From the NCBI GenBank assembly GCA_010356995.1, contig ML996705.1:610399-630398 (forward strand): 20,000 bases of DNA, in the 5' to 3' direction. Shown one piece after another: positions 1,587 through 19,526 of this stretch (positions are counted from its first letter, which is position 1; each line of letters opens with the position of its first letter). The position numbers were made by a program, and so were the translations under genes. The notes under the pieces were generated by a model that saw nothing but the letters and a program-made list of their open reading frames with translations, made no database searches and had not been told where the DNA came from. Source of the DNA: Trichodelitschia bisporula. Lineage: Eukaryota.

Positions 1587-1758
1587 ATCCTCCCATCTCG
1601 GCGCTCTACTTAGAGAAGGCACACAGAGTGCTCGGCATATCACCCGTAGCACACTCGGATCCTGCACGATCCTCCCATCTCGGCGCTCTACTTAGAGAAG
1701 GCACACAGAGTGCTCGGCATATCACCCGTAGCGCACTCGGATCCTGCGCGATCCTCCC
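1587..1758. repeat. 82-bp tandem duplication (2 copies plus 8 bp)
   Basis: 1587-1668 and 1669-1750 differ at only 2 positions; ATCCTCCC recurs at 1751. Confidence 0.95.
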
Positions 1759-2313
1759 CCCAAATCCTCTCACTCTATCCTATCACCACCAATCCTTCGC
1801 ACATGGAATAACCGCAACCTGCATACTGTCAAATCCCCTTGGCATAGATTGACCCTATCGCAGACTCTGACGTGCGATAATCCTCCGACCGCCCACTTAT
1901 TGATAAGAACATTCGGCCTGCGCAAACTGGGCATATGCAAGGCACGTCAGTTTCCCACACAACCAAACCTGCATGACGCTGTCCGCTCAACAAGGCACTT
2001 TGGCATACGACCAGTCTGGACCATGCACCATATTGCACCTTCATAACCTTAAATGGCCTCGACGCCCCATGGCGAAATTGCGTTCAATCAACACACCAAA
2101 GTCTAGCCGCGGCTAGCTATGCGAGTAGCAACGCCATCACGTGACCATTTCGATGGGAGCATCACCATCACGTGACGCCATTCAGAAGATCAGAAGGCTG
2201 ACATTCAACTTCAAGCTTACTACACAGTACAAACTACAAAATCCCCCTCCAACAGCGAATCATTTACAAAAGTTTTTGACAGAAAAATATCCACCCCACA
2301 CCAGACGACCCGC

Positions 2314-2838
2314 CTACTGCGCCTCCACCTCAGGCACCTCCTCCTCAACTTCCGGCTCAGCCGCCTCAACAGCCGGCTCATATGCGTCCTCAGCCTCATT
2401 CTCCGGCTCGGGCCGTTGCTGCTGCGGCCGTCCCTGCTGCGGGCGCCCCTGCTGCGGGCGCGGCTGATTCTGCCACTGCGGGCGCGGCTGGTTCTGCGGG
2501 CGCGGCTGGTTGCCGCTGCTCGGCCACGGGCGCACCTCGATGGTGACGCTGTCGTCGCTGTCGTCGTCGCGGCCGGGACGGCCCTGTTGAGGACGTCCCT
2601 GCTGGGGGCGGCCTTGCTGGGGACGACCTTGCTGGGGACGGCCTTGCTGCACGTACTCCTCGTCGTCGTCGTCGCGCGGTGCGCCGCCGCGGGGAGGACC
2701 GTTGCGCGGCGCGCCGCCGAAGCCGGCGAAGCCGCCGGGGCCGCCGAATTGGCGCGCCACGAGGGTGGAGGAGGACTCCGGGGCGGGGAGCGCGGTGGCG
2801 GCGCTGATGGCCAGGGCGAGGGCGAGGATGAAACGCAT
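2314..2838 (-). CDS. Secreted Cys-free low-complexity protein with QQGRP/NQPRP repeats (174 aa)
   Basis: Clear signal peptide MRFILALALAISAATA-LP and a pro-peptide ending LVAR|Q. It has a Gly-rich segment, 7 QQGRP and 3 NQPRP units with synonymous codon variation, and an acidic tail. CATAAAA lies ~110 bp upstream. Confidence 0.85.
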   Translation of the reverse strand: MRFILALALAISAATALPAPESSSTLVARQFGGPGGFAGFGGAPRNGPPRGGAPRDDDDEEYVQQGRPQQGRPQQGRPQQGRPQQGRPGRDDDSDDSVTIEVRPWPSSGNQPRPQNQPRPQWQNQPRPQQGRPQQGRPQQQRPEPENEAEDAYEPAVEAAEPEVEEEVPEVEAQ

Positions 2839-4284
2839 TTTGCTGGTTGGTTTGAGGGTTGGGTGAATGAGTGGATTGGGTTGGATGAAAGAGTGTGGTG
2901 TTGTTGGTTGGTGAGTGTGGGTTATTGAGAGTGGGTGAGGGGGGTTTTATGTCGCTCGCTCTCAACGGTTTTGCGGTTGTGGAGTGAGGGGGCGACGTAC
3001 ACTTACAGTGGCGAGCTTGCGTCCGTGAGAGGCTATTGTGGTTCCAGCTATTATTACTTCATTCCACGGACTGGGCGCTGCGCTTTCCACCTGTTGCGTG
3101 CGCGGGAGGGGGTGCGTGGCGCGTTCGCCAGAGTGTATTGCGCTGACGGCGGGTGTTAGATGAGGGGAACCAGTGGACGGGTTGGCGGGCGGCATATTGG
3201 GATGGGGGATGGGGTGTGGGGTGGGTTGAGAGCGGGGAAGTGGCGACCTGTTTGCGTACGATGGTCAGTCAATGAGGTGAGAGAGGGGTCAAACCTCGTG
3301 CTCGGTTTCTCCGAAGGATACTTTCCGAGAGTACTTTCGGGATGGATGGAAGCAATCTGGTTCCTGACGCAATATCTGGTTCCTGACAAGCTCGCCACCC
3401 GTGCCTGGCGATGCCCTTCTTTCCTGGCACGCTGTTGCGCCCTGGCTTCTTCGCCTGTGCTCCGGCCGGGAGATCGTGTGTCGGCACAAGCTGGCGGGGA
3501 GTTCGGGTTTGGCGCGGCAGTGACTCGCTTTGCTGGAGTGTGAGGCCACAGAATGCATCTAATGCACCAAGTGTAAGCCGAATCCAGGTCCCAAATCTCG
3601 AGGTAATTCTTAACTCAACTCTTGACACCACGCAAAGCCTTTTGGCACCTCTTCGCTCTGCCCTACGACCAGGTACGCATTCCCGGATTTCCCGGGTCCG
3701 CCGCCGTGGCAATAACGCGGGAAAATGGTCTGGGCACGAGCGTGATATTGCTGCCGGTCTGGCCTCACCTCGACCCGGCGCACATGTCAGCCGCGTGGCC
3801 TGGCTAGAACTAGCCCTGCGGACGGAATTACGTGCGTGCCAGCATCTCCGCATATCGTGGCTGGGCCGGGGCTGGGCTTAATATCGACGTCGTGCCTCGC
3901 TCGCCTCCACCACGCGTCACACGAGAATAGTCCTCGCTCGGGAATTAGCCCACTCGTCTGGTTTCTATTCTGGTCTCGAAACACGCCACGCCATGGTGGT
4001 GACATCGTGTACTTCGTGTTAGCGGCTCGTCTGTTTCTTCGATATGTATATGCCGACCTATGGCCCTGGATCGAGAGTTGTTCGGCGTCGGTGGTAGAGT
4101 GCCCAGGGTCTGGGCGCGGCCTCCGCGCGCACTGAGCGGATTAGGGTTCCGCGCTGTGCGGACAGCGGAAGCATTTCGGCTCGCTTGGTTAGCGGATGGA
4201 AAGTGAGAGGGGGATTGCGCGGATTTGTTTCACGCGGCCTTCTCCACATCGATCGGGCAAGCGGGTGGTGGGGGGAGGGGGGGG

Positions 4285-4290
4285 TATATA
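4285..4290 (+). promoter_or_regulatory. Putative TATA box of the HGPDGDDDH-repeat gene
   Basis: TATATA embedded in GC-rich sequence ~80 bp upstream of the ATG at 4370. Confidence 0.55.
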
Positions 4291-4369
4291 TCCCGCCCTG
4301 CACACGAAGCACGAAGCACCACCCACCACACACTCCCTTTCTACTACCAGCAAAGTCAGCGAAGTCAGA

Positions 4370-5096
4370 ATGAAACTCACTCTCCCCCTCCTCACTCTCT
4401 TCGCGTACGCACCTCTCTCTCTCTCTCTCTCTGTAGAACCCGACTAACCGAAGCAGCGCCCTCGCGGCCGCGCACGGCCCGGACGGAGATGACGACCACG
4501 CTCCTGCGCCGGTTCCTACAACGACTACGACGCCGGCCGTGGTTGTGAGGCGGCATGGCCCGGACGGCGATGATGATCACGCGCCGGTGCCTGCGCCGGT
4601 GACGACGGCTACGCCCGCGGTTGTAGTGCGGCGACACGGGCCGGACGGCGACGACGACCATGCCCCTGCGCCTGTGCCCGCCCCCGCGAACACGACTACG
4701 CCGGCGGTTGTAGTGCGGCGACACGGGCCGGACGGCGATGATGATCATGCCCCTGCACCGGTGCCCGCCCCCGCGAATACGACTACGCCGGCGGTTGTTC
4801 GGCGGCACGGGCCGGACGGTGATGACGACCATGCCCCCGCTCCTGCGACTACGGCTACCCCGGCTGTGGTGGTACGGCGGCATGGGCCGGACGGCGATGA
4901 TGACCACGCTCCGGCGCCGGTGACACCGGCTACGCCCGCGGTTGTGCTCCCTGCGCCGGTGACGACGGCTACGCCTGCCGTGGTTGTGAGGAGGCACGGC
5001 CCGGATGGAGATGACGATCATGCTCCGGCGCCTGTGCCGGCGACGCCTGCGCCTGCGCCGATACCCACGACGCTGGTGCCTGTTGTGAGGCGCTGA
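4370..5096 (+). CDS. Secreted Kex2-processed repeat protein (KEP) precursor with 7 x HGPDGDDDH-(Pro/Ala/Thr)-VVRR modules, 224 aa
   Basis: Exon 1 is 4370-4404 and exon 2 is 4457-5096. The intron 4405-4456 reads GTACGC...CTAAC...CAG. The spliced product is MKLTLPLLTLFAALAAA|HGPDGDDDHAPAPVPTTTTTPAVVVRR|HGPDGDDDH..., in frame with ORF 4539..5096. Every module ends in RR. Confidence 0.9.
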
Positions 5097-5630
5097 AGGC
5101 CGGGATTGTGATGAGAAAAAAGGCGCGAAGGAACTGTAATACTGAAGTTTTGAAGTAGAAGACAAAGAGAGGAGAGGAAGAGAGGAAGAGACTTAAATAC
5201 ACGATGCCGAGTATCCTCCTTTGCTCTTTCCCTCTGTCATGCGCTCATTAAATCGTGTCCCTCGATATGCCCCTTCCTGACATGACAATGCTCCTTTCAT
5301 CTCCACAGCAGATTGAATGGGGAGGTCTGGTGGAGATAGATGGTGGGAGATGCTTGTTGAGGGTGGAGAACGGCGGAGAAGGTGACTGAAGCTTGAATGT
5401 GTCAGCCTGCATTCGACGATGTTGAGTTCGGGGATGCGCCTATTCCATCATACACGGCTTATGGGCTCGGCCCGCACTTTGGCTTCACGTTCCCGATGCC
5501 GTTACCTACGCCGCTTCGAGATAACCCGGACTCGCCGATATCGCAGGCTGCCCTGAGTGTATCTATTCATCCACAGCCCATCAGTTCGGCCACCTCAGCC
5601 TCTTATTCTCATCACCGCCTCCCCACCACC

Positions 5631-6646
5631 TCACTCCCACATCTGCCTAACATTCAAATTCACCCTCTTCCCCCCCATCCATCCCCTCCACGCCTCATAC
5701 TCCGCCTCCCTCCCCGCCGGCCACTCCCCTAACTCTCTCGGACACGTCCCGGGCACCACCAGCGGAACCCCATGCCAGGCAAACCGCGCCGCACCCGTCA
5801 TATACACCGCATCGCCCGACCTCAACCTTACGGCGATAGCCTTATTCCCCTCGTCCCCCTCCTCGACCCCCACAACAAACACCCCCTCACACCCCACACT
5901 AACACTCACCAGCCCCGCCCCACACTCCTCGCTCACATCCCGATGCAGACTCAGCGTATCCCCGGGGGAGTAGAAATTCACAATCGCAGCCTCGGGTCTA
6001 AGTGCGGGATACAAGCCCGTCAACAAAGCCGCGATATCGGGCGGGAAGGGAGGAGGTGGGGTGGAGGGGTAGCGCTTTGCGGTCCAGTCATATTGCCCGC
6101 CCAGCGTCACCCAGCGCAGTTTCTTGCGCAGAAACGTCCCGTACTGGAGCGGCTTGTGCAGACTCGCGTCGAGCGGGGGTAGAGGCGGGGCCGAGCGCGG
6201 CAAGGCGAAGAAGGAGGTCCCGCTGGAGGGGAGCGTGTAGTGTAGGTGTGTGTTTGTGCGGTGGACGGGGTTGGAGAGGTCCCGGTGGAGGAGGCGGGTG
6301 AGAAGGGTGGTTTGGATGGCGGGGGGGAGGAGGGAGGGGGTTATGTAGAGGCCTGGGATGTTAGCTGGGGCTATTAGACAGTAGATATTGGAATACCTGG
6401 TACAGAGGGATGCTCCCACACCGGCGCATCATCCGTCTCCCCCGTCCAGTCCTCATCAAACGCACCGAAGACCTCGCGCAGCCGTGACCCCTCCACCGTG
6501 CCTACGCACCGCATCCCGTGCGCCTCGCCGCGGGGATCGACAACCAACTCATCGCGCTCCAGATCCTCGGCTGGCAGCTTCACATATCGTCGGTAAAGCT
6601 CCTTAAACGCATCGGGCGGCTTCGCGTGCGGATCGAGGTGTTCCAT
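5631..6646 (-). CDS. abh1: AlkB-family Fe(II)/2-oxoglutarate dioxygenase, ALKBH1/Abh1 type (323 aa)
   Basis: Exon 1 is 6646-6397 and exon 2 is 6352-5631; the intron 6396-6353 reads GTATTC...GCTAAC...CAG. Motifs: KLRWVTLGGQYDW, AAIVNFY, HxD (LHRD), distal His (AWHGVP) and RxNLNxR. Confidence 0.92.
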
Positions 6647-6777: not shown

Positions 6778-7839
6778 ATGGCCACATCACGAATCGCGCG
6801 GCCGCTGGCCAGACGGCTCAATGCGCGCCATGTGCTATCTACGCAGGCGACTCCGCTCCGCGCGTTTTCCTATGCGCTTCCTGCGCGCTCAGAGCAGCCC
6901 CCGCGCACGACACACTTCGGCTTCGAAACCGTGCCAGAGGACGTAAAGCAATCGCGCGGTACGCTCCCCAATACCCCCCCCCTCATCCATCCCTCCTCCC
7001 TCCCTCTCACCTCCTACTAACCCCCCCCCCCAGTCGCCTCAGTCTTCTCCTCCGTCGCCACATCCTACGACACCATGAACGACCTGATGTCGCTGGGCAT
7101 CCACCGCCTCTGGAAAGATCACTTCGTGCGCGCCCTCGACCCAGGGATAAACCCGCTCATCGCAACCCCGGGCGCGCCTCCTTTATCCATCCTCGACGTC
7201 GCGGGCGGGACCGGGGATATCGCGTTCCGCCTCCTCGAGCACGCGGGTCGGGTACACGGGGATAATACCGCGCGGGTCATGGTTGCGGATATCAATCCCG
7301 ATATGCTGGCCGAGGGGCGGCGGCGCGCGGCGGGTACGCCGTATCTAAGCCAAGGGAGGTTGGAGTTCGTGGAGGCGAATGCGGAGGTGCTGAGCATGGT
7401 CCCAGACGCGAGTGTGGATATTTACACCGTGGCCTTTGGGATCAGGAACTTCACGAACATCCGCAAGGCCCTGGCTGAAGCACACCGCATCCTGAAACCC
7501 GGGGGCGTGTTCGCATGCCTCGAGTTTAGTAAAGTGGGAAACCCGGTGTTGGATGCTGTGTACAAGAGGTGGAGTTTTGGGGCTATTCCGCTGATAGGAC
7601 AGGTTGTTGCTGGGGATAGGAAGAGTTATCAGTATTTGGTGGAGAGTATTGAGAGGTTTCCGAGTCAGACGGAGTTTGCGGGGATGATTAAGGAGGGGGG
7701 TTTTTTGCTTCCTGAGGGGGGCGGGTGGGAGGATTTGAGCATGGGGATTGCGTGTGTGCATAAGGGGATTAAGCCCGTGGAGGAGAAGGTGAGGGCGGAG
7801 GAGCCGGTGAAAGCGGAGGTGCCGCCCGTCATGGCGTGA
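6778..7839 (+). CDS. COQ5: Mitochondrial ubiquinone biosynthesis C-methyltransferase (UbiE/COQ5 family, 328 aa)
   Basis: Exon 1 is 6778-6958, with an Arg-rich targeting peptide and THFGFETV. The intron 6959-7033 reads GTACGC...CTAAC...CAG. Exon 2 is 7034-7839, with VFSSVATSYDTMNDLMSLGIHRLWKD, the SAM motif LDVAGGTGDIAF, AFGIRN, LKPGG and SYQYLVESIERFP. Confidence 0.97.
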
Positions 7840-8098: not shown

Positions 8099-9508
8099 CT
8101 AAAGCTCATCATCCTCCTCCTCATCCTCCCGCCCCATCTCACTCGACAAAATCACCCCCTTCCCCCCCCCAGGCGGCAGCGGAATCCGCCACCCCACCAA
8201 ACTCTGCGGCAACGCCCCCCTCCCCTCCCCCAGCAAACTATCCTGGCTCCACCACCACGCCTCCCCTTCTGCTCTCCCAGCCCCAGTCCCTCCAGTCCCA
8301 CCCGTAGACTGCGGCGCACTCGACGGCAACTCCTCGCCCTCGGTCTCCGTCTGCGAGGGCGGCGGTGAGTGGGCCGAGGGCGGGCGAGTAGAGCCTGGGT
8401 TCGTGGGCAGCGGGTGAGTGGAGAAGAAACTCGACCTCGGCGCACTCGACGGCGGATAGCTCGGATACCGCGGACTCGCACCCCCCTCCTCCTTCACCGG
8501 GCTCGGCCCTAGATCCGGGACCTGCGACTCCTGGAACCCGGTATCTCGCGCCCTATGTCTAGCCAAATAACTCATCTCCGTCTCGAGCTGCGAGTCTGGC
8601 TGGGAGTCCCAGAACGGGCCCCTCGGCCTGCCGAGCTCATTCCTTCCGAGCTCGTTCCTTGTCAGCTCGTTCCTTGCATGCTCGTACCTCGCAAGCTCGT
8701 CCCTCACTCGCCGCGGCGAGGGCGAGAGGTCCAGCGGTGGTGCTTCGGGGGACACGGAGCTGGGTACTGGGGGGCGGGATGAGAAGGGTGGGGTGCGGGG
8801 GGGTGGGAGCGTGTGTTGCGTCATGAAGAGGGGGGATTCGGTTGCGGCCTGGAGGGCTGCGGTGGCTTGGGTTGCTTCGCCGTTTTGGCCGAGGCCGATG
8901 TTGAAGCGGTCGAGGGGGGGTGGGGGGTAGGATTCTTCGTGCGAGTGGTGCGTTTCGTGCTCGTCGTGCTCCTCGTTGTGCTCCTCCTCGAGGTCCTCGT
9001 GCTCCTCATGCTCCTCGGCATGCTCCTCGTCGTGCGCCATCTCGTGGTCCTTGTTGTGGTCCATGTCGTGCTCCTCGTCGTGCTCCTCGTCGTGCTCCTC
9101 GTCATGCTCTTTCTCACGTTCCTCCCCGTGAACCTCCTCGCGCTCCCGGCCGAGGTGGCCATTAAACCGGGCCGGCGAGGCAGGGCGATACAACGAAAAT
9201 TTACCACGGTCCTTGTCCCCTGCTTCCGAGGGTGAGGATGAAGGTATTTCGGGAAGCTCTATCCAGGCCATTTGCGTAAGGGTAGTTTGATCGAGGGCCT
9301 TTTTGGGCGGGCGGGGGAGCCGGGCGGGTTGTGGTGAAGAGGGCCGGGCGAGACGTCGTGGCTGAACGAAGGGGAGTTGAGTTAGAGTTGATTGTGCTAG
9401 ATCACGGTCGCGCTTTTTAGGTTTGCGTCGCTGGGCGGTGGTGGGTGGTGTGTCGTTCTCGTCGTCGCCGGTGGTGGGGAGGGCGGCGCGCTTGCGCTTT
9501 GGGGCCAT
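8099..9508 (-). CDS. Intrinsically disordered, probably nuclear protein (469 aa) with QxTLTQ motifs and a His/Glu/Asp repeat
   Basis: Long open frame. The likely start is ATG 9508, giving MAPKRKR (NLS-like). It contains QSTLTQLPF and QTTLTQMAW, an HDEE repeat, and a Pro/Ser-rich C-terminus. I recognise no globular domain. Confidence 0.75.
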   Translation of the reverse strand: MAPKRKRAALPTTGDDENDTPPTTAQRRKPKKRDRDLAQSTLTQLPFVQPRRLARPSSPQPARLPRPPKKALDQTTLTQMAWIELPEIPSSSPSEAGDKDRGKFSLYRPASPARFNGHLGREREEVHGEEREKEHDEEHDEEHDEEHDMDHNKDHEMAHDEEHAEEHEEHEDLEEEHNEEHDEHETHHSHEESYPPPPLDRFNIGLGQNGEATQATAALQAATESPLFMTQHTLPPPRTPPFSSRPPVPSSVSPEAPPLDLSPSPRRVRDELARYEHARNELTRNELGRNELGRPRGPFWDSQPDSQLETEMSYLARHRARDTGFQESQVPDLGPSPVKEEGGASPRYPSYPPSSAPRSSFFSTHPLPTNPGSTRPPSAHSPPPSQTETEGEELPSSAPQSTGGTGGTGAGRAEGEAWWWSQDSLLGEGRGALPQSLVGWRIPLPPGGGKGVILSSEMGREDEEEDDEL

Positions 9509-10421
9509 GGTTAATATGGTGGTGGGATGCGGCGATACCGGAGTAGGAGATTCAGGTCCAGTTGTGTTAGACGAGGTCGATGGGCAGGGCCGGTGTGAGA
9601 GGCTACACTGTTTGGTGTGACTACTGTGCTGCACTGGAGCTGACATTGATATGAATGAAATGGATTTGAGGTCGTTGGGACGCGCGCCGCGATTGGTCGT
9701 GCGCGTCTCGCGTGGCGCGTGTGCACGTGGCACTGAGGGCTAGGCACATGGAGAGTTGGGGTTTGGGAGGCATAAGATAGGGAAGGAGGTGTTTGGATTT
9801 ATTGAATATGCTTTTGAATGCTTTTTGTGTGGTTTGGCTGGTCTTGTTTGGGGAGATTTTGTTGTGTGTGTTCTCTTGCTGTTTTGGGCGCCAAGTGGGC
9901 TCCGTCGCGGCAAGGCTGATGGATCGGGGACGACAGATCGTGCATTGCGTTGGGGAGTTTGGGCTCAGCCTGCGGGCTGGGAGGAGGGCTTGCTGATATT
10001 TATTAGAATATACTTCAGTAGTGGGGATGGTTTCCCTTCGTCTTTTGGGCCTTGTCATGATGGGTAGACAGAGATTTCTTGTTAGGCAAATGTCGTCGTG
10101 GGGGGCATCCTCTGCCTTGCGTTCGGCTACAGTGGAGGAATATCCGCATATGGCACACTAGTTTACTACTCATACACTTTATTACTTGCACAGAGACTAA
10201 AAGTACAACGTTTTGACAGTTCGCTCATACATCACTTCCGCTTTCCTCCCCCAAGTCCGGCAAGGGGCCTACCTTTTTAGGCGGGGGTCAGACCCCTTAC
10301 CAGGCTTCTACTCCGTCTCCGGTTTCTTAAGCCCAAGCATGACCTCCAGGTCATTGCTTAAGGCAGAAATTTCCTCGTTCATCCAACCATATGAGCTCGC
10401 AGCGGGATACGTAATCTCAGA

Positions 10422-13154
10422 TTAGACTCTGCCGTAAAGAACAGCAAACCGGTCATTTATGACCCGTTGCTGAGCCTGGGGTTTAATTCTGCCCCCATTC
10501 ATGAACGGTGCGATTTTTTTGATAAAGTTGAAGGGTATTTTCCTTCCGTTGGGCGACCGTAAGGACTTGCGAGCCAGAAGGCAGCGACCGGCCATCTTCA
10601 CAGCCAGCCTTATTTGCATCGCTGACTATCTTCATCAAGAGCCGGCGAGCGTTGTACAAATTGCCGCTAGCATCCTCGAAGGCCTTGCTCGCATTATTGC
10701 TCCTAAGCGCCTGCTGCATGATTTGTTTTATGTCGTTGAGTATTTTCGATGCCTCTCGGCACCGGACTTGCTCATCCTGGACCGTCCCTGCCAGTCGCTT
10801 GCTGAGATTCTCCTTTAGGGCAGCTGTCTTCTGCTGGGCCTCCGTCGGCGGTTTAAAGACAGGCCCCTTACGCTTCTTATGCCTATTTCCCTTTCCCTGG
10901 TGGGGCGTCTGTTGGAGAGATGACTGAGGCGGTGCCGAGCTCGGGCCGCTGCTCCACCCGCTCGCGCCCAACCCCCTGAGGGAGCTGGCGAGCTATGTGG
11001 AGAAGCAGCCGACGGAGTTTCCACCGGAGCAGGCTCGGAGCGCGAGAGTGCTGGAGGCGGAGCAGAGTGAACAGCGGGAGCAGTCTGGCTCCACCTGCTC
11101 TGGCCCAACCCCCCTGAGGGAGCCGGCGAGCGAGCCGGAGTCGCAGCCCGGGATGTTTGCCGAAACGCGCGCTTGGACGCCCACTGGGGTTTAGTGAGAC
11201 CGCGGGAAGGAGCAGGTGTTGAAGAGGTTTTCAGCCTCTTACACATCTCAAACTTCTTCTCAGGGTTCATCGTGTGCTTGCTGCCCGCCAGCTGTGCTGG
11301 GGGAGTGCGAGTCTGACGGGCGGGGTCGGCCGTCTGTGAGGCGGTAGTGGGAGTTGGGGGGGCAGGGGCGGGGTCGGCCGTCTCAATGGCGGGAGCGGTC
11401 GTCCGAGGGGCGGGGGCGGGGGCGGCCGTCTCAAGAGCGGGAGCGGACGTTTGAGGGTCGGGGGCGGGTACTGTTATGTCGGGGGCAAGTGTCTGAGCAG
11501 TAGTCGCGGCGTTATTGGCAGCGGAAGCTGGCGTCCGAGCGGTGGTAACCGGGTCGTACAGCCACTTCCCCAGCTTCGGCTTGGCTGAGGGCGCCGGTGC
11601 AGGGGGCGTGGCGGGCGTGGATGGTGTGGTACATCTCAATCCAGTCGCAGTCCTTCATTACCCTGAAAGATAGGCGGCGATTGGAGGTCTTGATTGGTGT
11701 GAAGTAAGGAGCGGAGTTGACGGAGGGCGCCGTAGGAGCCTCAGCGGTCCGAGCTGGCCCGCCAGGGAGGTTGTTCAGCATCTCATCTATGGCCGCCGTA
11801 AACATCGCGTCCTCACTGATGGCTTTTGACGCCGGCGCAGGCACGGGAGGCAGCGAGGCTGGCGCAGGCGCAGGTGGCGGCGAGGTCGGCGCAGGCGCGA
11901 GTGGAGGCGATGCTGGCGCAGGCGCGGGAGGCGGCGATGCTGGCGCAGGCGCAAGTGGCGGCGGGTCTGGCGCAGACGCAGAGGGCGGGCCACTCCGGAT
12001 GTCCTTTGAAATAGGTGCGCCAAAGATGTCCTGCAGCAACTCATGCTTCGCTGCTGCAATGGCCGCATCCTGGGCAATGGTCTTTGACGCTGACCCCTCA
12101 TTCGCGACCGCAATGTCCATCTCCCGGGTGACCTTGCGGACGCTTCTGCCACGTCCACTGTAGAACTAGCTTCAGTGACATGATCAACCACCTTACGCGC
12201 CTCGGGCTCCACATGCGTGGGAGCGGCCACTTCAACAGCTGGGACGTCCTCTGTTGTCTCGACCGAAACCATGTCAACTGGACTATCCACGTGCTGGATG
12301 GGGGTGGGTTCGACCTCCTCTTCATTATCGGCCGTACACAAGGTAGGCTTCGGCGTATCATCGGAAGTAGGCGGCGCCACCTCCCCCGTGATCTCGCAGG
12401 CGCTGGGCTCATTGACGTTCACCGCTTCCACCGTAGAAACAGTTTCAGCGATATTATCAATCACCTTACGCACCTCGGGCTCTATAACCAAGGCAGAATC
12501 GGGTACGATACCAGTCATAGGCAGGACCGTATTCGCAGTCACAGCCACTGGCTCAGCGTCCTTCATCTCTTCCAAGGGAGCGATCACTTCAGCGTTTTGA
12601 CAATCGGTCTGCTGTAGGGGGGTGGGCGAGACCTTCAGTTCGGCATCAGTCGTACACAAGGTAGACGTATCCGCATGATAGAAGGTCTCCTCGGGTTCGT
12701 CATCCGTCATGACCTCGGGGTTTTCACCCGTCGTGAGCACAGGCTCGGTCGTGCCGTTGGTGCCGTCTTCGGTCTCAACCACTGGTGCATCGAGGTCAAG
12801 CTGAAACTTGAACCCATCGATATCGGCAACTACTTGGGAGCCTCAGGTTCAGTCAACGTGTCATCGTCCTCCCAAGCCTGACCGAACTTCTGCCCGGATG
12901 CAAACACTGCTTAGTTAGCGAAGTGGACATTAGACAAGGCGAATGACTTACAGAACAATGCAGCAACGGCTGCCAGGAGAGGGAGAGGAGGCTGGGGGCC
13001 GTGAGCCGGGCGCATCGGGGCACCCGCCGCTGTCAAGTTAGCAATCCTGCGACGATAGTGGATGGGAAGACCTACAGAGAACTGCAACAAGCAGTTCAAA
13101 GAGAAAGAGAGCAAGGAAGATTCCTGGAATGACCCAGGTGAGATGCTTACCCAT
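10422..13154 (-). pseudogene. Frameshift-disrupted gene (pseudogene or assembly errors) for a membrane-anchored low-complexity protein
   Basis: ATG at 13154, with canonical introns at 13075-13030 and 12951-12907 that join two hydrophobic segments in frame. Then come consecutive overlapping ORFs (12782, 12120, 11639, 10971, 10619), linked by frameshifts near 12835, 12140, 11635, 10972 and 10517. Confidence 0.65.
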
Positions 13155-14980: not shown

Positions 14981-16596
14981 ATTCTGATGCTCATCGCGGT
15001 CGAGTACGATTGCAGCTGTGGTTCAAGTCCCGCTCATGCTCTTCATCCGCCCTCGAGCTCCAGACCATCGAAGCCGCTGCGAGGCCGCCTGCCGCGCAGC
15101 CTTGGAGCTGCAAGTTACAGCGCGCTTAACCAATAGGGAGAAGATACATGCCCATGGTGCTGACGACAAGAAGAGCTGGAAACGGAACCTCCAATGAGGT
15201 CGAGGTAAACTCTCCGACCCAAGCATCTCGCTGGGGCTGCTGAAGTTGCGGGGTAGCTGAAGTGCTGCAAGGCTGAGAACGCATGAGTCGCTGGCTAATG
15301 TACTCATTAGCTATGTTTCTCATACCCGAGTACGCGTCATCAGACGCAGGATATCCTGCTTGAACCTACTCCCGACTGTGCCTGAACGGGCATCCGCTGT
15401 TCCACACTCGCCCTCAGGTATACACCAACCTCATTCACCCTCCAAGCCACCTAAGTACCAGCCGCCCAGCAATAAACGTTCAGCTGCCAAGTGGTGCCCA
15501 GAGACCTGAAAGCTGTCAGCGTCCACCAAACGCTTCTTCCTGCCTATCAATGGACAACACCGCGCACGGAGCTGTAACTCCGCTGACAGCAGCAACGTTT
15601 AGCAAAAGGTTCTGCCGCGCAAATACGCTCACCCACTCCCTACCTCAGCCCACGGCAAGACGGGATCCAGTCTCAGGTCCACGCAGCCGGGCGTCGACTT
15701 CAGCTCTTGAGTTGTCTGCAGTGGTACCTAAACGGAGAACGGTACATGCAGCGCAGATGCAACAAAAGTGCGGCAGACACGCAGTGACCCGCTTTTTTGA
15801 CGTTCAAAGGCCGAGATGCGGGAAGCTGAATCCCTATCCTGCGGACATGCGGAAGCTGAAGTCACATGATGGGGCGGCTGAGAGACATGCTGCAGCCCGG
15901 CGGTTCGAGCTCGGGGCGGGGTAAGGCGGGAGATCCCGCTGCCGCTGGCCTCGGTTAGCGTTTCGGAGCGTAGATCAGGAGAGAAGAATCGAGCAAAGCC
16001 GTGAGGGATCAGGGTTTTTGCCTGGTGGCAGTTTGGGAGTTCCTTCCGGATATGGACGGCACGTGATAGATTTGAGCCTTGCGGCCTTGCTGCCATCGTC
16101 CTCCATGTGGTGCCCGAAGGCCACTTGGGAAGTCATGGCCGTATGCCAGAAAAGCGTCGCTGCTCCGCACTGAAAGGTTTGCTGGGTGGTAAACAATGAT
16201 TATCAGGACGCCCGCCATGACTTTTGCAGGACGCCCTCGGCCCCTGTGCGGACGATGTCCATGCGAGAAGCTTTTGTAGCAAAAGCTTCATTCAACAGCG
16301 CACCAGACATCGCGAAGCCGCGAAGAAGTCTCTCATGATTAGAACCGGGCTTGTAAATAAACCTGTAGAAGAAAGAGGGTGCTGAGCCAAATGCTCGATT
16401 TTAACTAGATTTGAGAAAACTACAGAGTTGGATCAAAATATCCGTTCATACGATGTCACCGGATTAGTCGATTTCAGTGATTTCTTTTCGCCTTTCTTTC
16501 CCTCTGTCTAGGCGAAACTGATGTGTCCATTATCCAATTAGAACAAGGTAATTAACACAAGCTTGTATTTATAATTGTTATAATAACAAATCGCAC

Positions 16597-16714
16597 ACAT
16601 ACGGCCATAGATCAGAGAATGCACCAGTCCCCGTCTGCTCACTGAAGTTAAGCTCTGAATCGGTAGACTAGTAGTTGCGTGGGTGACCAGCAGCGAATCC
16701 CTGCTGCTGTATGT
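16597..16714 (+). rRNA. 5S rRNA gene, isotype A
   Basis: 118 nt, ACATACGGCC...GCTGTATGT, with terminal helix pairing and the AGTTAAGC and CTAGTAGTT...GGGTGACC internal control motifs. A T-run terminator follows, and TTATAA lies at about -28. Confidence 0.95.
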
Positions 16715-16908
16715 TTTAATCTTTTTGCACTCCAGGAGCTCGCAGATCGGCCCGTCCAACGGGGGAAGCTCCGAAACTCAAACCGAGTTGACTTTTGGTC
16801 TCAGGCCATAGGAGAAATTCGTGCCCGGCCTGGGGGTTCGTGTTCCTTTTGACAAGACTGGCCGTCAACCGCCCGTCATCACTAACTTGTTAATACAATA
16901 AGTCCATC

Positions 16909-17026
16909 ACATACGGCCACAGGTCAAAGAGAACACCAGTCCCCGTCTGCTCACTGAAGTTAAGCTTTGAACCGGTTGACTAGTAGTTGCGTGGGTGACC
17001 AGCAGCGAATCCCAACTGCTGTATGT
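16909..17026 (+). rRNA. 5S rRNA gene, isotype B
   Basis: 118-nt 5S sequence followed by T-runs (Pol III terminator). Confidence 0.95.
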
Positions 17027-17363
17027 TTTTTGTCTTTTTTGCACCCCGGAAGCTTGCTGATCGGCCCGTTCAGCGGGAGGAGCTCCGAAGCTTAACGTAA
17101 GCCGACACTTTGGCCAAAGGACCAGCCGAAAAAGTCATAGCTGTCCCGTCCACAAAATCAAGCAGGCGAGATGGCCATGATAATTTTTCAGGTGGCCCGT
17201 GAAGCTTTTTGCTCGGCCGGCTGATCGAGGGGAGATGCTCCGCAGCTTAACGCACGTCCCCTATTCCAACCCAAAAACGCTCTCGCTCGGAGAGCTAACA
17301 CTTCTTTTGACAATGCTTCCGTCTTCTTCGCCAGCTATTAGTTAACTGGCAGCACAGTCCACC

Positions 17364-17481
17364 ACATACGGCCATAGGTCGAAGAGTACACCAGTCCCCG
17401 TCTGCTCACTGAAGTTAAGCTTCGAACCGGTTGACTAGTAGTTGCGTGGGTGACCAGCAGCGAATCCCAACTGCTGTATGT
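17364..17481 (+). rRNA. 5S rRNA gene, isotype B'
   Basis: 118-nt 5S sequence with 4 differences from copy 2, followed by T-runs. Confidence 0.95.
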
Positions 17482-17702
17482 TTTTGCCTTTTTGCTTTTC
17501 TGCGGGTGGATTCACACGGCCGAGGGGTCGACAGAGTGCTGAGAAGTAAGGCGGGACTCGAAGCCCGGATAGGACGGTACAGTTCGGAATCAACATTTCG
17601 CACCGGTGGAGACTGACGGAACAGCCGTAATGACCTCAATGAATTCAACTTCCAGCCATTAGCAAGATGCCTCTTAGCCGCCAAAAACCCAAAGACGAGG
17701 AC

Positions 17703-19129
17703 CTAATCAAACGTAACCTTCGTCCCCTTAAACTCCATTTTCCCCATCGCCTCCTTAACCTTCTTCTTCGCCACCCAACTCGGATGCAACGGCCCCTCAT
17801 CATCCTTCCTCCTAGGAACAACCTTCTTCTCCCGCTCCACAACCGGCTCGGTATTCGCCCCCGTGCTCCTCCTCCCCCTCCCGTGTCCATCGGTCCCCTG
17901 GGCGCCGCGCTTCAGATCCCACCCCTCGTCCCTGCCTCCGCGTTCTTTAGGCGCGTTGGCGACGTGTTTGGCTTTGTCGCCGTATTTTTTTTCCCAGATG
18001 GCGCGGCGCGCGCGCTGGCCCCGTCTGTTTTTGCGAGGCGCGATTTCTTCGCCGAGGTCTGAGGGGGCGGAGTCGCTGCCGGACCAATAGCCGGCCATGG
18101 TGAGGGAGGGGAGGAAGGTTGAGGAGTTGGGTTTTGAGACGGCGGGATCGGCGGTGGGGAGGAGGGGGGCGGTGGCTTTGGCTTTGCGTATGGTGTCTGC
18201 GAGTTCGATGTGCAGTTGTGAGGCTGCGCTGTCGATGCTGGAGGGTAGGGAGGGGGCGTCGGACTCGTTGTCAGAGTCAGAGTCCGAGCCAGGTGCTAGC
18301 CGTGCATCGTAGGTACCGAAGTCGTCGCTTTCGGAGGCGGCGTCCTCGACCCCACTCCCGCTCCCGGCGCCGTCAGACGAGCTGAAACCGTTCCACCCCT
18401 CCTCCTCGGACTCTGAGTCCGCGTCCATATCCACATCGTCGGAGACAGGTGCTCGCGGCTTATTCGTTGTTTCGCTGGTCCGACCCACCGCCCCCAGCGC
18501 ACCCTTCACCCTCTCAACAATCCCATCAACGCACTCACGAACAGGCTGACTCGCACACAAGCGGGCTCGTATATTCGCCGCCGCAAGCTCTTCCAGCGCG
18601 TCCTTCTTCGGCGGATCCGTTGGCGCGGTTGGGAGTACGTCCGTATTCGCAATGGCCTTTACGCGGCCGAGCACGCGGAGCATGTACCCCTCTGCTAGGA
18701 CGGGGAAGTCGCATGCCTGCCAGCTACAATTAGCTCAATCCACATACGAGGCGAAAGATTTGCAGGGTTCCAAGTCGTCCAGTCGCGACCTCCTTCACCC
18801 GCACTCAAGGTGGGACATACCTTCAACGCGCGAATCTCGCGGCACACCTTCTCAACCCCCGGCTGATCCTTCCCCGCCTCCGCAGTCTTCTTCCTCCGAC
18901 TGAGTTTCTGCCGCTCAAACCCACGGGCTAGCTTCAGGGCCTTCGTCAAGTCCTTCTTCCCAGAGTTAAGAAGCGCGGCGATGGTCGTGCGCTGCCTGGA
19001 GGAGAGGCGCGGAGGGGAGGCGGGCGCTGCGACGGCATTGGGGTTCACTTTCGCGGCGCTGGTCGTCTCAGGCCTGGTACTAGGAGCCCCCTCGGCGGGG
19101 GAGGTGGGTTCGCGCTTGCGTTTGGGCAT
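17703..19129 (-). CDS. BUD22: Bud22 / SRFBP1-family ribosome biogenesis protein (~440 aa)
   Basis: Exon 1 is 19129-18821 (MPKRKR...LKLARGFERQKLSRR; alternative in-frame ATG at 19141). The intron 18820-18717 reads GTATGT...GCTAAT...CAG. Exon 2 is 18716-17703, with STFLPSL, KNRRGQRARRAIWEKKYG, LHPSWVAKKK and C-terminal FKGTKVTFD. Confidence 0.93.
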
Positions 19130-19408
19130 GGTGGTGGTCATGCGTGGGCGGGTGTTTGGTTGACGTTGAGATGGTGAAGTTTGAAGCACTTTTTGGGTGT
19201 GGCTGAAGGGTGGGCCAAGGCGCTAGCGCGCGTGGATGTGGCGGTACGGGGATGTCAGTCTTTTGCGCGCAATCGATGAACAGTCGCGCCGCTGGGTGCG
19301 GGCAGAGCCTGGATATCAAATATGAATATTACCACGGTTTTTCTAGCAGTCTTTCATCGGGGTAAAAAGATTGATCCCGAGGACATCTCCGAGTGCAAAA
19401 AGACAGAA

Positions 19409-19526
19409 ACATACAGCAGTTGGGATTCGCTGCTGGGCACCCACGCAACTACTAGTTAACCGGTTCAAAGCTTAACTCCAGTGAGCAGACGGGGACTGGT
19501 GTATTCTTTGGCCTGTGTCCGTATAC
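19409..19526 (-). pseudogene. Degenerate 5S rRNA copy (probable pseudogene)
   Basis: Full-length reverse-complement 5S with 9 substitutions versus copy 2. Three of them break helix pairs without compensation, and one falls in the box C region. Confidence 0.75.

Follow-up and report, generated by a model that had tools for sequence, protein, structure and literature searches.

The product of a spliced gene in Trichodelitschia bisporula is, taken as a whole, best explained as a Kex2-processed repeat protein (KEP), a precursor that would release seven peptides with cation-binding heads, for which copper is the best guess, a reading to which we assign a rough probability of 0.45. The evidence comes from the structure of the gene, the pattern of selection within its repeats, the architecture of the predicted protein and a small set of candidate relatives.

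A spliced, two-exon fungal gene encoding a secretory precursor is present on the forward strand of the window (the 20,000-nucleotide stretch of DNA analyzed here). Exon 1 (4370..4404, 35 nt) covers Met1 through the second base of codon 12 and contains most of the signal peptide, while exon 2 (4457..5096) supplies the rest of it (to 4472), the seven repeat modules and a TGA stop codon (5094-5096). The intervening 52-nt intron (4405..4456) has a GTACGC 5' site and a CAG 3' site and contains a (CT)10 tract (4413-4432) and a CTAAC branch point (4444-4448). A script and a reading of the sequence agree on a spliced coding sequence of 675 nt and a protein of 224 amino acids; without splicing, the ATG frame ends at a stop at 4445-4447 (ORF 4196-4447), and splicing restores the frame. 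The sequence-only reading had posited this intron, which the ORF track misses, and had proposed a check of the 4405-4456 junction. The junction is present in assembled contigs from two sequencing runs, X3 and X4 (two runs of one sample in one study, whose RNA nature is a guess), in which 4100-4402 is joined to 4457-4646 with two letters between and no other difference; these contigs lack exactly the 52 nt of 4405-4456, with flanks identical over 303 and 190 letters. The contig from a DNA run, X1, covers 4100-4646 without gaps and retains the intron.

The ATG at 4370 has an A at position -3 and is preceded, 80 nt upstream, by a TATA-like element, TATATA (4285..4290), which occurs once per strand in the scanned interval 3370-4369 against about 0.25 expected. 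Since this element lies downstream of an in-frame ATG at 4196, the ATG at 4370 would be favored as the first AUG. The X3 and X4 contigs run through 4100-4370, that is, past the ATG at 4196; were the mRNA to begin still further upstream, this ATG would leave the signal peptide buried inside the protein. The same promoter scan, for consensus sites, found no Mac1 CuRE, ZRE, SreA GATA or CDRE site in 3370-4369, a result that we judge uninformative either way, as we do the single loose Ace1-type match (0.7 expected) and the four PacC GCCARG matches (1.6 expected) in this interval.

The first 17 residues of the spliced protein, MKLTLPLLTLFAALAAA, are followed directly by HGPDGDDDH. This leader has a basic n-region, a mean Kyte-Doolittle hydropathy of 2.1 over residues 3-17 and Ala at both -3 and -1, and is signal-like by these heuristic features; the 17-residue signal peptide proposed earlier is supported in the spliced protein at the level of a heuristic. 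The remainder of the protein consists of seven modules, each composed of the nonapeptide core HGPDGDDDH, a linker of Pro, Ala, Thr and Val, and a terminal VV(V)RR. Core 1 (4473..4499) directly follows the predicted signal peptidase site, between AAA and H, and each of the other six follows an Arg-Arg pair: core 2 (4554..4580; RR at 4548-4553), core 3 (4635..4661; RR at 4629-4634), core 4 (4722..4748; RR at 4716-4721), core 5 (4806..4832; RR at 4800-4805), core 6 (4881..4907; RR at 4875-4880) and core 7 (4995..5021; RR at 4989-4994). VVRR closes all seven modules, which gives six internal Arg-Arg pairs and one terminal pair (5088-5093) abutting the stop codon. Linker length is variable, so that modules span 25-38 amino acids, the sixth having the longest linker (a 38-residue module), and the linkers of modules 3 and 4 each contain an NTT sequon (4689-4697 and 4776-4784). 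A script reproduced each of these features as they had been described from the letters, namely variable linkers, VVRR at every module end and two sequons. The cores account for 63 of the 224 residues (28%) and the whole modules for 207 (92%); each unit carries a net charge of about -4, and the protein contains no Met, Cys or aromatic residue. The intact precursor would have a mass of roughly 21 kDa, plus glycan. No Pfam family was found for it, and AlphaFold2 returned a mean pLDDT of 39.4 with no residue at or above 70 and almost no secondary structure, which, as a single-sequence prediction, is weak evidence; on this model the precursor is without a confident predicted fold.

The seven cores are unchanged at the amino acid level while their codons differ, as had been noted, and the comparison is exact: eight of the nine third codon positions vary among them, with only the Pro CCG fixed, against none of the 18 first and second positions. 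At least nine substitution events are needed, all of them synonymous, even though silent changes make up just 15 of the 81 single-base changes that the core allows. The mean pairwise synonymous difference (pS) among the seven cores is 0.8 per synonymous site with a dN of 0, and synonymous sites look saturated between cores. The codons for RR and VV also vary synonymously (for RR, AGG CGG, CGG CGA, AGG AGG and AGG CGC). The repeats are under purifying selection. We accordingly give almost no weight to a non-functional chance ORF over a GC-rich tandem repeat, a reading for which one could cite an opposite strand that is also open (4392-5192) and the lack of an identical annotated protein in the collections searched. 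The precise spliced form and the strictly synonymous variation in the forward frame already refute it, and the signal-like leader, the TATA element and the relatives in other fungi speak against it as well.

By its predicted architecture, the precursor is a new member of the KEP class with a head motif that was previously undescribed. KEPs are recognized bioinformatically as secreted proteins with at least three repeats between KR, RR or KK sites, the repeats making up at least 15% of the length (PMC6339444, available text), and the 224-residue protein shows all three features, the leader by heuristic. Together with the presence of one relative, RDI81551.1, in a published KEP catalogue (as far as its accessible tables go), this upholds the KEP architecture put forward in the sequence-only reading. 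Like the MFalpha1 alpha-factor precursor and other KEPs, as described in the available parts of PMC6339444 and PMC7329392, the protein has a signal peptide, at least three near-identical units and KR/RR-type sites; as in those KEPs, repeats fill most of the protein and maturation by Kex2 and Kex1 would be expected. It differs from other KEPs in its long units (23-36 amino acids after trimming) with a glycosylatable Pro/Thr stalk, in having no Ste13 XA/XP signature, in the absence of a pro-region, the first unit abutting the signal peptide, and in that the selected part of the unit is its N-terminus. Neither the core string HGPDGDDDH, shorter HGPD-type strings, MEGMEGM nor MPGMEGM was found in the literature searched; the string GMAGMAGM occurs in one paper, which is unrelated. 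HGPD was also absent from the supplements of two KEP catalogues (Umemura and Le Marquer) in the portions available, a weak negative given that the Umemura tables hold accessions rather than sequences.

The precursor is probably cut into seven peptides with an identical His/Asp-rich start. Signal peptidase would cut between AAA and H, the Thr/Pro-rich linkers would be O-mannosylated and the two NTT sites N-glycosylated, and in the late Golgi Kex2 would cut after each VV(V)RR, with a Kex1-type carboxypeptidase then removing the Arg-Arg. The products would be seven peptides of 23-36 amino acids sharing the free N-terminus HGPDGDDDH-AP, each continuing from the head into a stalk of Pro, Ala and Thr and closing with the short hydrophobic stretch (T)PAVV(V). 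Ste13-type dipeptidyl peptidase takes off X-Ala or X-Pro, and should spare this head because Gly-Pro follows His1. The nonapeptides themselves had earlier been expected to be released, which the sequence contradicts: no basic site follows HGPDGDDDH, so the released units would be whole modules. RR is named among the usual fungal Kex2 sites (PMC6339444, in the text available), and a KR-HG junction is cut by Kex2 in Pichia to give an N-terminal HGYVDQ, as determined by N-terminal sequencing (PMC5086550, in the part accessible). Exposure of an N-terminal His, also proposed earlier, is consistent with the candidate relatives described below, as KR precedes the His in all five modules of three of them (P0016, P0017 and P0019).

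The alternative in which the Arg-Arg sites stay uncut or are only partly cut would leave an intact, heavily O-glycosylated, strongly acidic, disordered mucin-like glycoprotein that presents a His/Asp cluster seven times over; as part of the matrix or wall, for instance, it could bind Ca2+, other cations or minerals. We consider this distinctly improbable. It fits a composition rich in Pro, Thr and Ala, the absence of any confidently predicted fold and the likeness of DGDDD to DxDxD-type Ca2+ ligands, and it gains from two of the relatives: canonical dibasic sites are missing before the heads of a Venturia protein, and the P0017 module sits within an enzyme domain, where cleavage seems unlikely. 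Against this, Arg-Arg has been kept through synonymous change at all seven sites, and a pair just before the stop would have a purpose only if trimming is meant to leave every unit with the same end. The first head abuts the signal peptide site, so that every head would be N-terminal after cutting, and the protein ends in ...LVPVVRR followed by the stop, with no C-terminal hydrophobic signal of the GPI type.

A different kind of Kex2-dependent product, a ustiloxin-type (dikaritin) RiPP precursor with a core cyclized or tailored by clustered enzymes, we regard as very improbable; ustiloxin-type precursors were among the architectures named for comparison in the sequence-only reading, and this comparison fails. 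The two share a signal peptide and Kex2-bounded repeats (PMC7329392, available text), and a 2OG-Fe(II) oxygenase is the convergent neighbor downstream (5634-6428, reverse strand). Tyr is missing from the core, however, and aromatic residues are missing from the protein altogether. In the first ORF set, 4 of 14 ORFs matched Pfam, representing three genes (an AlkB-type 2OG oxygenase, PF13532, a UbiE/COQ5 gene and a BUD22 gene), and these named neighbors are all of housekeeping types. Of 126 stop-to-stop ORFs of at least 75 amino acids, the 22 set aside overlap the gene itself or the AlkB-like, COQ5 and BUD22 genes, and the 104 scanned against Pfam gave no match. DUF3328/UstYa, tyrosinase and other tailoring families were thus absent from the 20-kb window at the level of ORFs, at which exon-split genes could escape. 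The Venturia relative, RDI81551.1, is listed as a KEP of "type 0" with no DUF3328 gene nearby (Umemura 2020 Table S2, as far as available). Membership in the ustiloxin-type (ust-RiPS/dikaritin) group was rejected on the lack of both a DUF3328 gene in the window and a core Tyr.

Four proteins from elsewhere (P0016 to P0019) share the module of a basic site followed by HGPD and an acidic run. The best supported is P0016, with an E-value of 8.6e-4 in an exhaustive phmmer search and 5e-11 in BLASTP, with the motifs in register; its profile E-value of 2.1e-9, from profile queries built on two-core segments of 42-46 amino acids, is partly circular in that a 20-residue piece of P0016 is inside the profile. 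P0017 contains KR-HGPDGDDDD, in a module inserted into a secreted FAD/BBE oxidase inside the enzyme domain, and P0019 contains KR-HGPDGDDEE. P0018 (RDI81551.1) is the 150-residue hypothetical protein EG328_002821 of Venturia inaequalis and carries the exact HGPDGDDDH twice, with an E-value of only 2.5. The E-values of P0017, P0018 and P0019 range from 1.2 to 7, and these three were pre-selected by shared motif words; chance RHGPDGDD 8-mers are estimated to number in the tens for a database this large, and in these three the match of the motif, taken alone, could be due to chance. Pfam returned nothing for P0016, P0018 and P0019.

Other searches added little to this set. The exhaustive phmmer search gave 15 matches at E <= 0.001, of which 14 are unrelated repeat or low-complexity proteins. 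Five of these 14, bacterial proteins with LARHG[VI]DGDD repeats, were set aside as look-alikes, the four that were scanned all being BlaR1/M56 peptidases. A word-indexed search of protein sequences, queried with the exon-2 protein, gave no match at E <= 0.01, its 8000 scored candidates being crowded by low-complexity proteins, and the same search with P0016 returned P0016 alone. The ESM Atlas held no usable match for the window protein and, for P0016, only unnamed fungal clusters with scores of at most 0.80; a PDB sequence search with P0016 found nothing. A degenerate pattern (R-HGPD-[GD..]-D-[DE]-[DE]) scanned against metagenome DNA matched at least 120 loci; among the matches listed, the ORF holds a single HGPD in 118 cases and two in the other 2, none of the 120 shows the repeat architecture, and all look like chance occurrences in GC-rich contigs.

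Like the window protein, the Venturia protein is small, secreted and from an ascomycete; it has a signal-like leader followed by units that begin with HGP, five in number, and both of its exact nonapeptides are preceded by VVAR-KP, comparable to VVRR. It differs in that none of its five heads follows a dibasic site (the sites are AR, R-SA, R-QP and, twice, R-KP), such that exposure of the His would need another endoprotease together with X-Pro/X-Ala trimming, and in its C-terminal MPEMPGMAGMGHS run, of a kind absent from the window protein. Conservation of the His residues in homologs had been named beforehand as a point on which the metal-binding proposal could fail, and the outcome is mixed: just 2 of the 10 modules of the relatives retain the second His, three have Met instead, at position 9 or 10, and five have Asp, Glu or other residues. 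Met-rich runs of the form M-x(1-2)-M-x(1-2)-M occur in all four relatives (MAGMAGMAGMHM, MEGMEGMEGM, MPEMPGMAGM and MPGMEGMHM), although Met is not part of the conserved query motif; among the 14 unrelated phmmer matches, two had a single such run, and these proteins are 877 and 2107 amino acids long.

Met-rich MxGM runs are Cu(I)-type ligands, and because all four relatives carry them outside the query motif, they give metal binding circumstantial support that points specifically to copper. The few relatives thereby suggest, short of proof, that the gene takes part in copper handling; since Met is missing from the window protein, the pointer to copper depends wholly on them. That the head is a cation-binding site, with copper as the best guess, is a tentative assignment that we place a little below even odds. 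The candidate metal-binding head peptide is HGPDGDDDHAPAP, in which the N-terminal amine and imidazole of His1, together with His9 and the Asp carboxylates, could form a small, labile site resembling a histidine brace, while Pro3 would block amide-nitrogen coordination of the ATCUN kind. The DxDxD-like DGDDD would suit Ca2+ as well as copper. The gene in the window may be a head-only version, amplified seven-fold, of the head plus Met-run module of the relatives, and its products could act in extracellular buffering, capture or hand-over of copper.

Three known systems offer points of comparison, each from the available part of the source. A histidine brace consists of the amine and imidazole of an N-terminal His plus a second His, and the proteins that have it (LPMOs and the X325/Bim1 type) are secreted fungal proteins with a processing-made N-terminal His, often in His-Gly, and a second His (PMC10952591). 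His1 and His9 are present in all seven units, so the sequence allows a brace, His9 being found in 2 of the 10 relative modules. In the known proteins, however, the brace is held by a folded beta-sandwich, whereas the window peptide would be short and disordered (pLDDT 39); it has no sequence similarity to these proteins, and no immunoglobulin-like or beta-sandwich domain of the sort that holds the brace in LPMO, X325 and CopC proteins was found (AlphaFold2 pLDDT below 70 throughout, no Pfam match). The N-terminal ectodomain of Ctr1, a disordered extracellular peptide, has both a Cu(II) site based on His and a Cu(I) motif of Met only (PMC9117721), the same pairing of His head and Met run seen in P0016-P0019. 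Ctr1 is membrane-anchored and has an ATCUN site with His at position 3, unlike the window protein, whose products would be soluble, contain no Met and begin H-G-P, which puts His first and Pro third, an arrangement that does not match the ATCUN Cu(II)/Ni(II) motif. [quoted passage not shown]

A processed KEP whose peptides act without binding metal, as extracellular signals of a pheromone- or quorum-like kind, as anionic antimicrobial or anti-adhesive peptides, or at the wall surface, is a reading that we judge unlikely. For wall-surface peptides the comparison is with the Rep1 repellents of Ustilago. The architecture is that of the KEPs, most of which have no known function and very diverse cores, with 2560 of 7878 standing alone (PMC7329392, available text). 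Identical cores kept by selection would also be expected of a receptor ligand, and the conserved hydrophobic (T)PAVV(V) end has no part in the metal model. Peptides of the alpha-pheromone type, however, are 9-24 amino acids long and usually have the Ste13 XA/XP signature (PMC6339444, in the part available); the units here are 23-36 amino acids long and glycosylatable, with HG-PD rather than XA/XP after the Arg-Arg. The combination of the head with Met runs in all four relatives, and the insertion of the P0017 module into an oxidase, also fit a chemical-binding module better than they fit a ligand.

Taking the copper-binding reading further, the gene and its relatives could represent an undescribed family of unmodified, ribosomally made fungal copper peptides released by Kex2, that is, a peptide "chalkophore" or copper shuttle, in which the free His-Gly-Pro-Asp head would serve as a minimal histidine brace for Cu(II) and the MxGM tails of the relatives would bind Cu(I). 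We regard this extension as doubtful. The literature searched contained nothing of this kind, neither Kex2-released copper or N-terminal-His peptides nor fungal ribosomal chalkophores.

KEPs are widespread in fungi, and for almost all of them the architecture alone is known. In the protein described here, what stays invariant is the His- and Asp-rich N-terminus that each unit would show after processing, and the relatives found combine it with Cu(I)-type Met motifs, which makes this a KEP that offers a concrete and cheaply testable chemical hypothesis. Should the copper reading fail, the protein would be one more KEP whose role is not known. Known extracellular copper handling in fungi relies on folded LPMO-like proteins, Ctr transporters and small-molecule chelators. 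Confirmation of the copper reading would make this the first fungal system of secreted copper-binding peptides that are genetically encoded and unmodified, and would provide a function for a group of KEPs that stand alone, that of the apple scab fungus among them.

The gene layout proposed in the sequence-only reading, an ATG followed by an intron, a signal-like leader and repeated modules, agrees with the sequence. On the forward strand, exon 1 of the repeat-precursor gene contributes 35 coding nt from the ATG at 4370, and exon 2 runs from 4457 to a TGA at 5094-5096. The 52-nt intron between them (4405-4456, forward strand) opens with GTACGC, carries a (CT)10 tract and a CTAAC branch point (4444-4448), and closes with CAG. 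Without splicing, the frame ends at a stop at 4445-4447; the spliced coding sequence of 675 nt encodes 224 aa. Three sequencing runs aligned to 4100-5400 bear on the junction. X1, a DNA run from which the assembly may derive, spans 4100-4646 in a single contig without a gap and so keeps the intron. Contigs from X3 and X4, two runs from one sample of one study that are presumed to be RNA, match 4100-4402 and then 4457-4646 with two letters between and are otherwise identical, so that exactly 52 nt are absent between flanking matches of 303 and 190 letters. The (CT)10 tract is masked in the read alignment, and the splice call rests on unambiguous separate contig pieces. Splicing is the simplest reading of this gap and is favored over microsatellite slippage, which would not delete a GT..AG-bounded segment with a branch point.

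The X3 and X4 contigs reach some 2.3 kb further upstream, across the promoter region, and are thus uninformative on the transcription start. The contigs from X1 and X3 that end at 4646 measure 2944 and 2840 nt, a difference of 104 nt, of which the intron in the aligned part explains only 52 nt. Either a second short segment, which could be an intron, is missing in X3 and X4 upstream of 4100, or the contig ends differ near the 82-nt duplication (window about 1700-4100). This 82-nt unit is duplicated in exact tandem at 1587-1750 with 98% identity. An in-frame ATG at 4196 is followed by no stop before the ATG at 4370 (ORF 4196-4447), and its use would place 58 extra residues ahead of the signal peptide, burying it. 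The TATA element found by motif scan at 4285-4290, downstream of the ATG at 4196, and the A at -3 of the ATG at 4370 would favor the short form.

By heuristic criteria, residues 1-17 of the precursor, MKLTLPLLTLFAALAAA, resemble a signal peptide, with a hydrophobic core of mean hydropathy 2.1 and Ala at -3 and -1. The 207 aa that follow the leader are built from 11 amino-acid types and contain no Cys, Met or aromatic residues. Each of the seven modules consists of the head HGPDGDDDH, AP, a Pro/Ala/Val/Thr linker of variable length and (T)PAVV(V)RR; NTT is present in two of the linkers, and the final RR adjoins the stop codon. AlphaFold2, run on the single sequence, gave no confident fold (mean pLDDT 39.4, 0 residues at or above 70), and a Pfam search of the protein returned no family. 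When the seven 27-nt cores are compared, eight of nine third positions vary and none of the 18 first and second positions does. At least nine substitutions have occurred in the cores and every one is silent, while only 15 of 81 possible single-base changes would be silent. Synonymous sites are saturated, with a mean pairwise difference of 0.8 per site, against a non-synonymous change of 0. The Arg-Arg and Val codons of the cleavage sites likewise drift silently; strong purifying selection therefore acts on the peptide sequence of head and cleavage site in all copies. A chance ORF is hardly credible and is refuted by the spliced contigs together with the silent-only variation among cores.

An aliphatic P4 residue is favorable for Kex2. 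In the processing we propose, with steps drawn from the known secretory pathway, signal peptidase would expose His18 of the precursor, the linkers would be O-mannosylated, Kex2 would cleave after every VV(V)RR, and a Kex1-type carboxypeptidase would trim off the RR. RR is among the usual Kex2 sites of fungi (PMC6339444). The predicted products are seven peptides of 23-36 aa with a net charge of about -4 each, all starting with HGPDGDDDH, instead of the free nonapeptides first envisaged. The position of the first head directly after the signal-peptide site and the RR before the stop argue that the units may be meant to be identical once processed, the free N-terminus being what is conserved. 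The protein could alternatively remain an uncut, acidic, mucin-like glycoprotein, which we consider improbable.

An exhaustive phmmer search with the precursor at E <= 0.001 gave 15 matches, of which P0016 is the one relative and the other 14 are unrelated repeat proteins. P0016 (210 aa) begins with a signal-like leader and carries Met-rich stretches and, set in Pro/Ala-rich linkers, three KR-HGPD[DG]D[DE] units; a single BLASTP comparison with the precursor placed the motifs in register (5e-11). A profile made from two-core window segments and one P0016 unit, searched against longer proteins, picked out four of the 8000 candidates scored (E <= 10). The value for P0016 (2.1e-9) is partly circular, a piece of it being in the profile, and those for P0017 (1.2), P0018 (2.5) and P0019 (7.0) are not significant, the candidates having been pre-selected by shared words. 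These three are nevertheless credible because the features they share were outside the query: all four proteins have N-termini that look signal-like by eye, and all four carry M-x-G-M-type runs, which occur in two of the 14 unrelated matches, once each and in much longer proteins. P0018, a hypothetical protein of Venturia inaequalis identical to RDI81551.1, contains the exact nonapeptide twice with VVAR-KP before it. Umemura's catalogue of Kex2-processed repeat proteins (KEPs) assigns RDI81551.1 to type 0 and records no neighboring DUF3328 gene; type 0 presumably corresponds to the 'stand-alone' class of the abstract. P0019 contains ...DMPGMEGMHM-KR-HGPDGDDEE.... P0017, a secreted FAD_binding_4/BBE oxidase, has its FAD domain interrupted at residues about 150-262 by an insert reading LRKR-HGPDGDDDD-VPAPAP...GHSHGGMEGMEGMEGMGGHG; the head-plus-Met module thus occurs inside an enzyme too. 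Five bacterial proteins (P0005-P0008, P0010) were rejected as relatives, their RRHGPDGDD likeness being due to chance or convergence. The four of them that were scanned are BlaR1/M56-peptidase membrane proteins, and the C-terminal arrays of roughly 33-aa repeats, motif LARHG[VI]DGDD, lie outside Pfam coverage.

These relatives agree in part with an exposed N-terminal His. KR stands directly before the head in all five units of P0016, P0017 and P0019; in P0019, KR-HDAC also occurs, and the leader ends LPRP-HDAC. Kex2 cuts KR|HG cleanly: a recombinant LPMO was found by N-terminal sequencing to start with HGYVDQ (PMC5086550). The Venturia sites are non-dibasic, the residues before His being R, R-SA, R-QP or R-KP; speculatively, an N-terminal His could arise there via an endoprotease and X-Pro/X-Ala trimming.

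Across the 20-kb window, ORF-level Pfam analysis recognized just three genes: an AlkB-type 2OG-Fe(II) oxygenase (5634-6428, reverse strand) convergent with the repeat-precursor gene, UbiE/COQ5 (7021-7836) and BUD22 (17706-19222, reverse strand). Of 126 stop-to-stop ORFs of at least 75 aa, 104 were scanned in a further Pfam pass with 0 matches; the other 22 overlap the gene (7), were already named (4) or cover BUD22 in a different frame (11). The surroundings of the gene give no indication of a RiPP cluster, because no DUF3328/UstYa, tyrosinase or peptidase gene was seen in the window, with the proviso that small-exon genes could escape an ORF-level scan. The likeness to ustiloxin-type precursors drawn earlier is thus not sustained: such a RiPP precursor is very unlikely, as no DUF3328 gene was seen in the window and the core has no Tyr. 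Just 3' of the gene, at 5156-5290, summed X1 contig depth climbs from about 185 to 32,336 and many X1 contigs with unlike flanks terminate, which looks like a short dispersed element with very many genomic copies. A roughly 130-nt, MITE-like element flanks BUD22 on both sides (16589-17485 and 19395-19524) in three direct copies and one inverted, 87-96% alike. Coding-size tandem arrays at 11301-11465 (periods 21/27/48 nt) and 11801-12006 (27 nt) sit in reverse-strand ORFs 10818-11654 and 11790-12842, which have no Pfam family. A 12-nt-period repeat at 8954-9139 (reverse strand) encodes the His/Glu/Asp-rich run ...HDEEHDEEHDEEHDMDHNKDHEMAHDEEHAEEHEEHE... within P0021, a disordered 546-aa ORF (8102-9739, reverse strand) with a KRKR-type start and neither a signal peptide nor a Pfam family found. 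P0021 is probably a nuclear protein, and no link to the repeat precursor was seen.

The precursor is classed as a KEP because it shows every sequence feature of that class, its cleavage being predicted. For an alpha-factor-type pheromone, a dikaritin precursor, a folded histidine-brace protein and a GPI protein, a defining feature of each was checked and is absent, as is that of an ATCUN peptide, such a site being excluded by Pro at head position 3. Our best guess for the function of the head is cation binding, with copper favored. By definition, a histidine brace combines a second His with the amine and imidazole of an N-terminal His (PMC10952591), and the Met-rich runs of P0016-P0019 are Cu(I)-type ligands like those of the Ctr1 N-terminus (PMC9117721). 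Against copper, the window protein has 0 Met, and DGDDD is equally suited to Ca2+. The proposed metal-binding role of both His residues is weakened for His9, which just two of the relatives' ten units retain, three having Met at position 9 or 10. That the processed peptides are instead signals or anionic effectors is unlikely, though a serious alternative. No mention of the head motif was found in the literature searched, which covered the KEP catalogue supplements in part, and its pairing with Met-rich runs appears undescribed. KEPs are a known class of great diversity, whose catalogue already includes one relative, P0018; if the copper reading holds, the precursor would be a new functional variant of KEPs.
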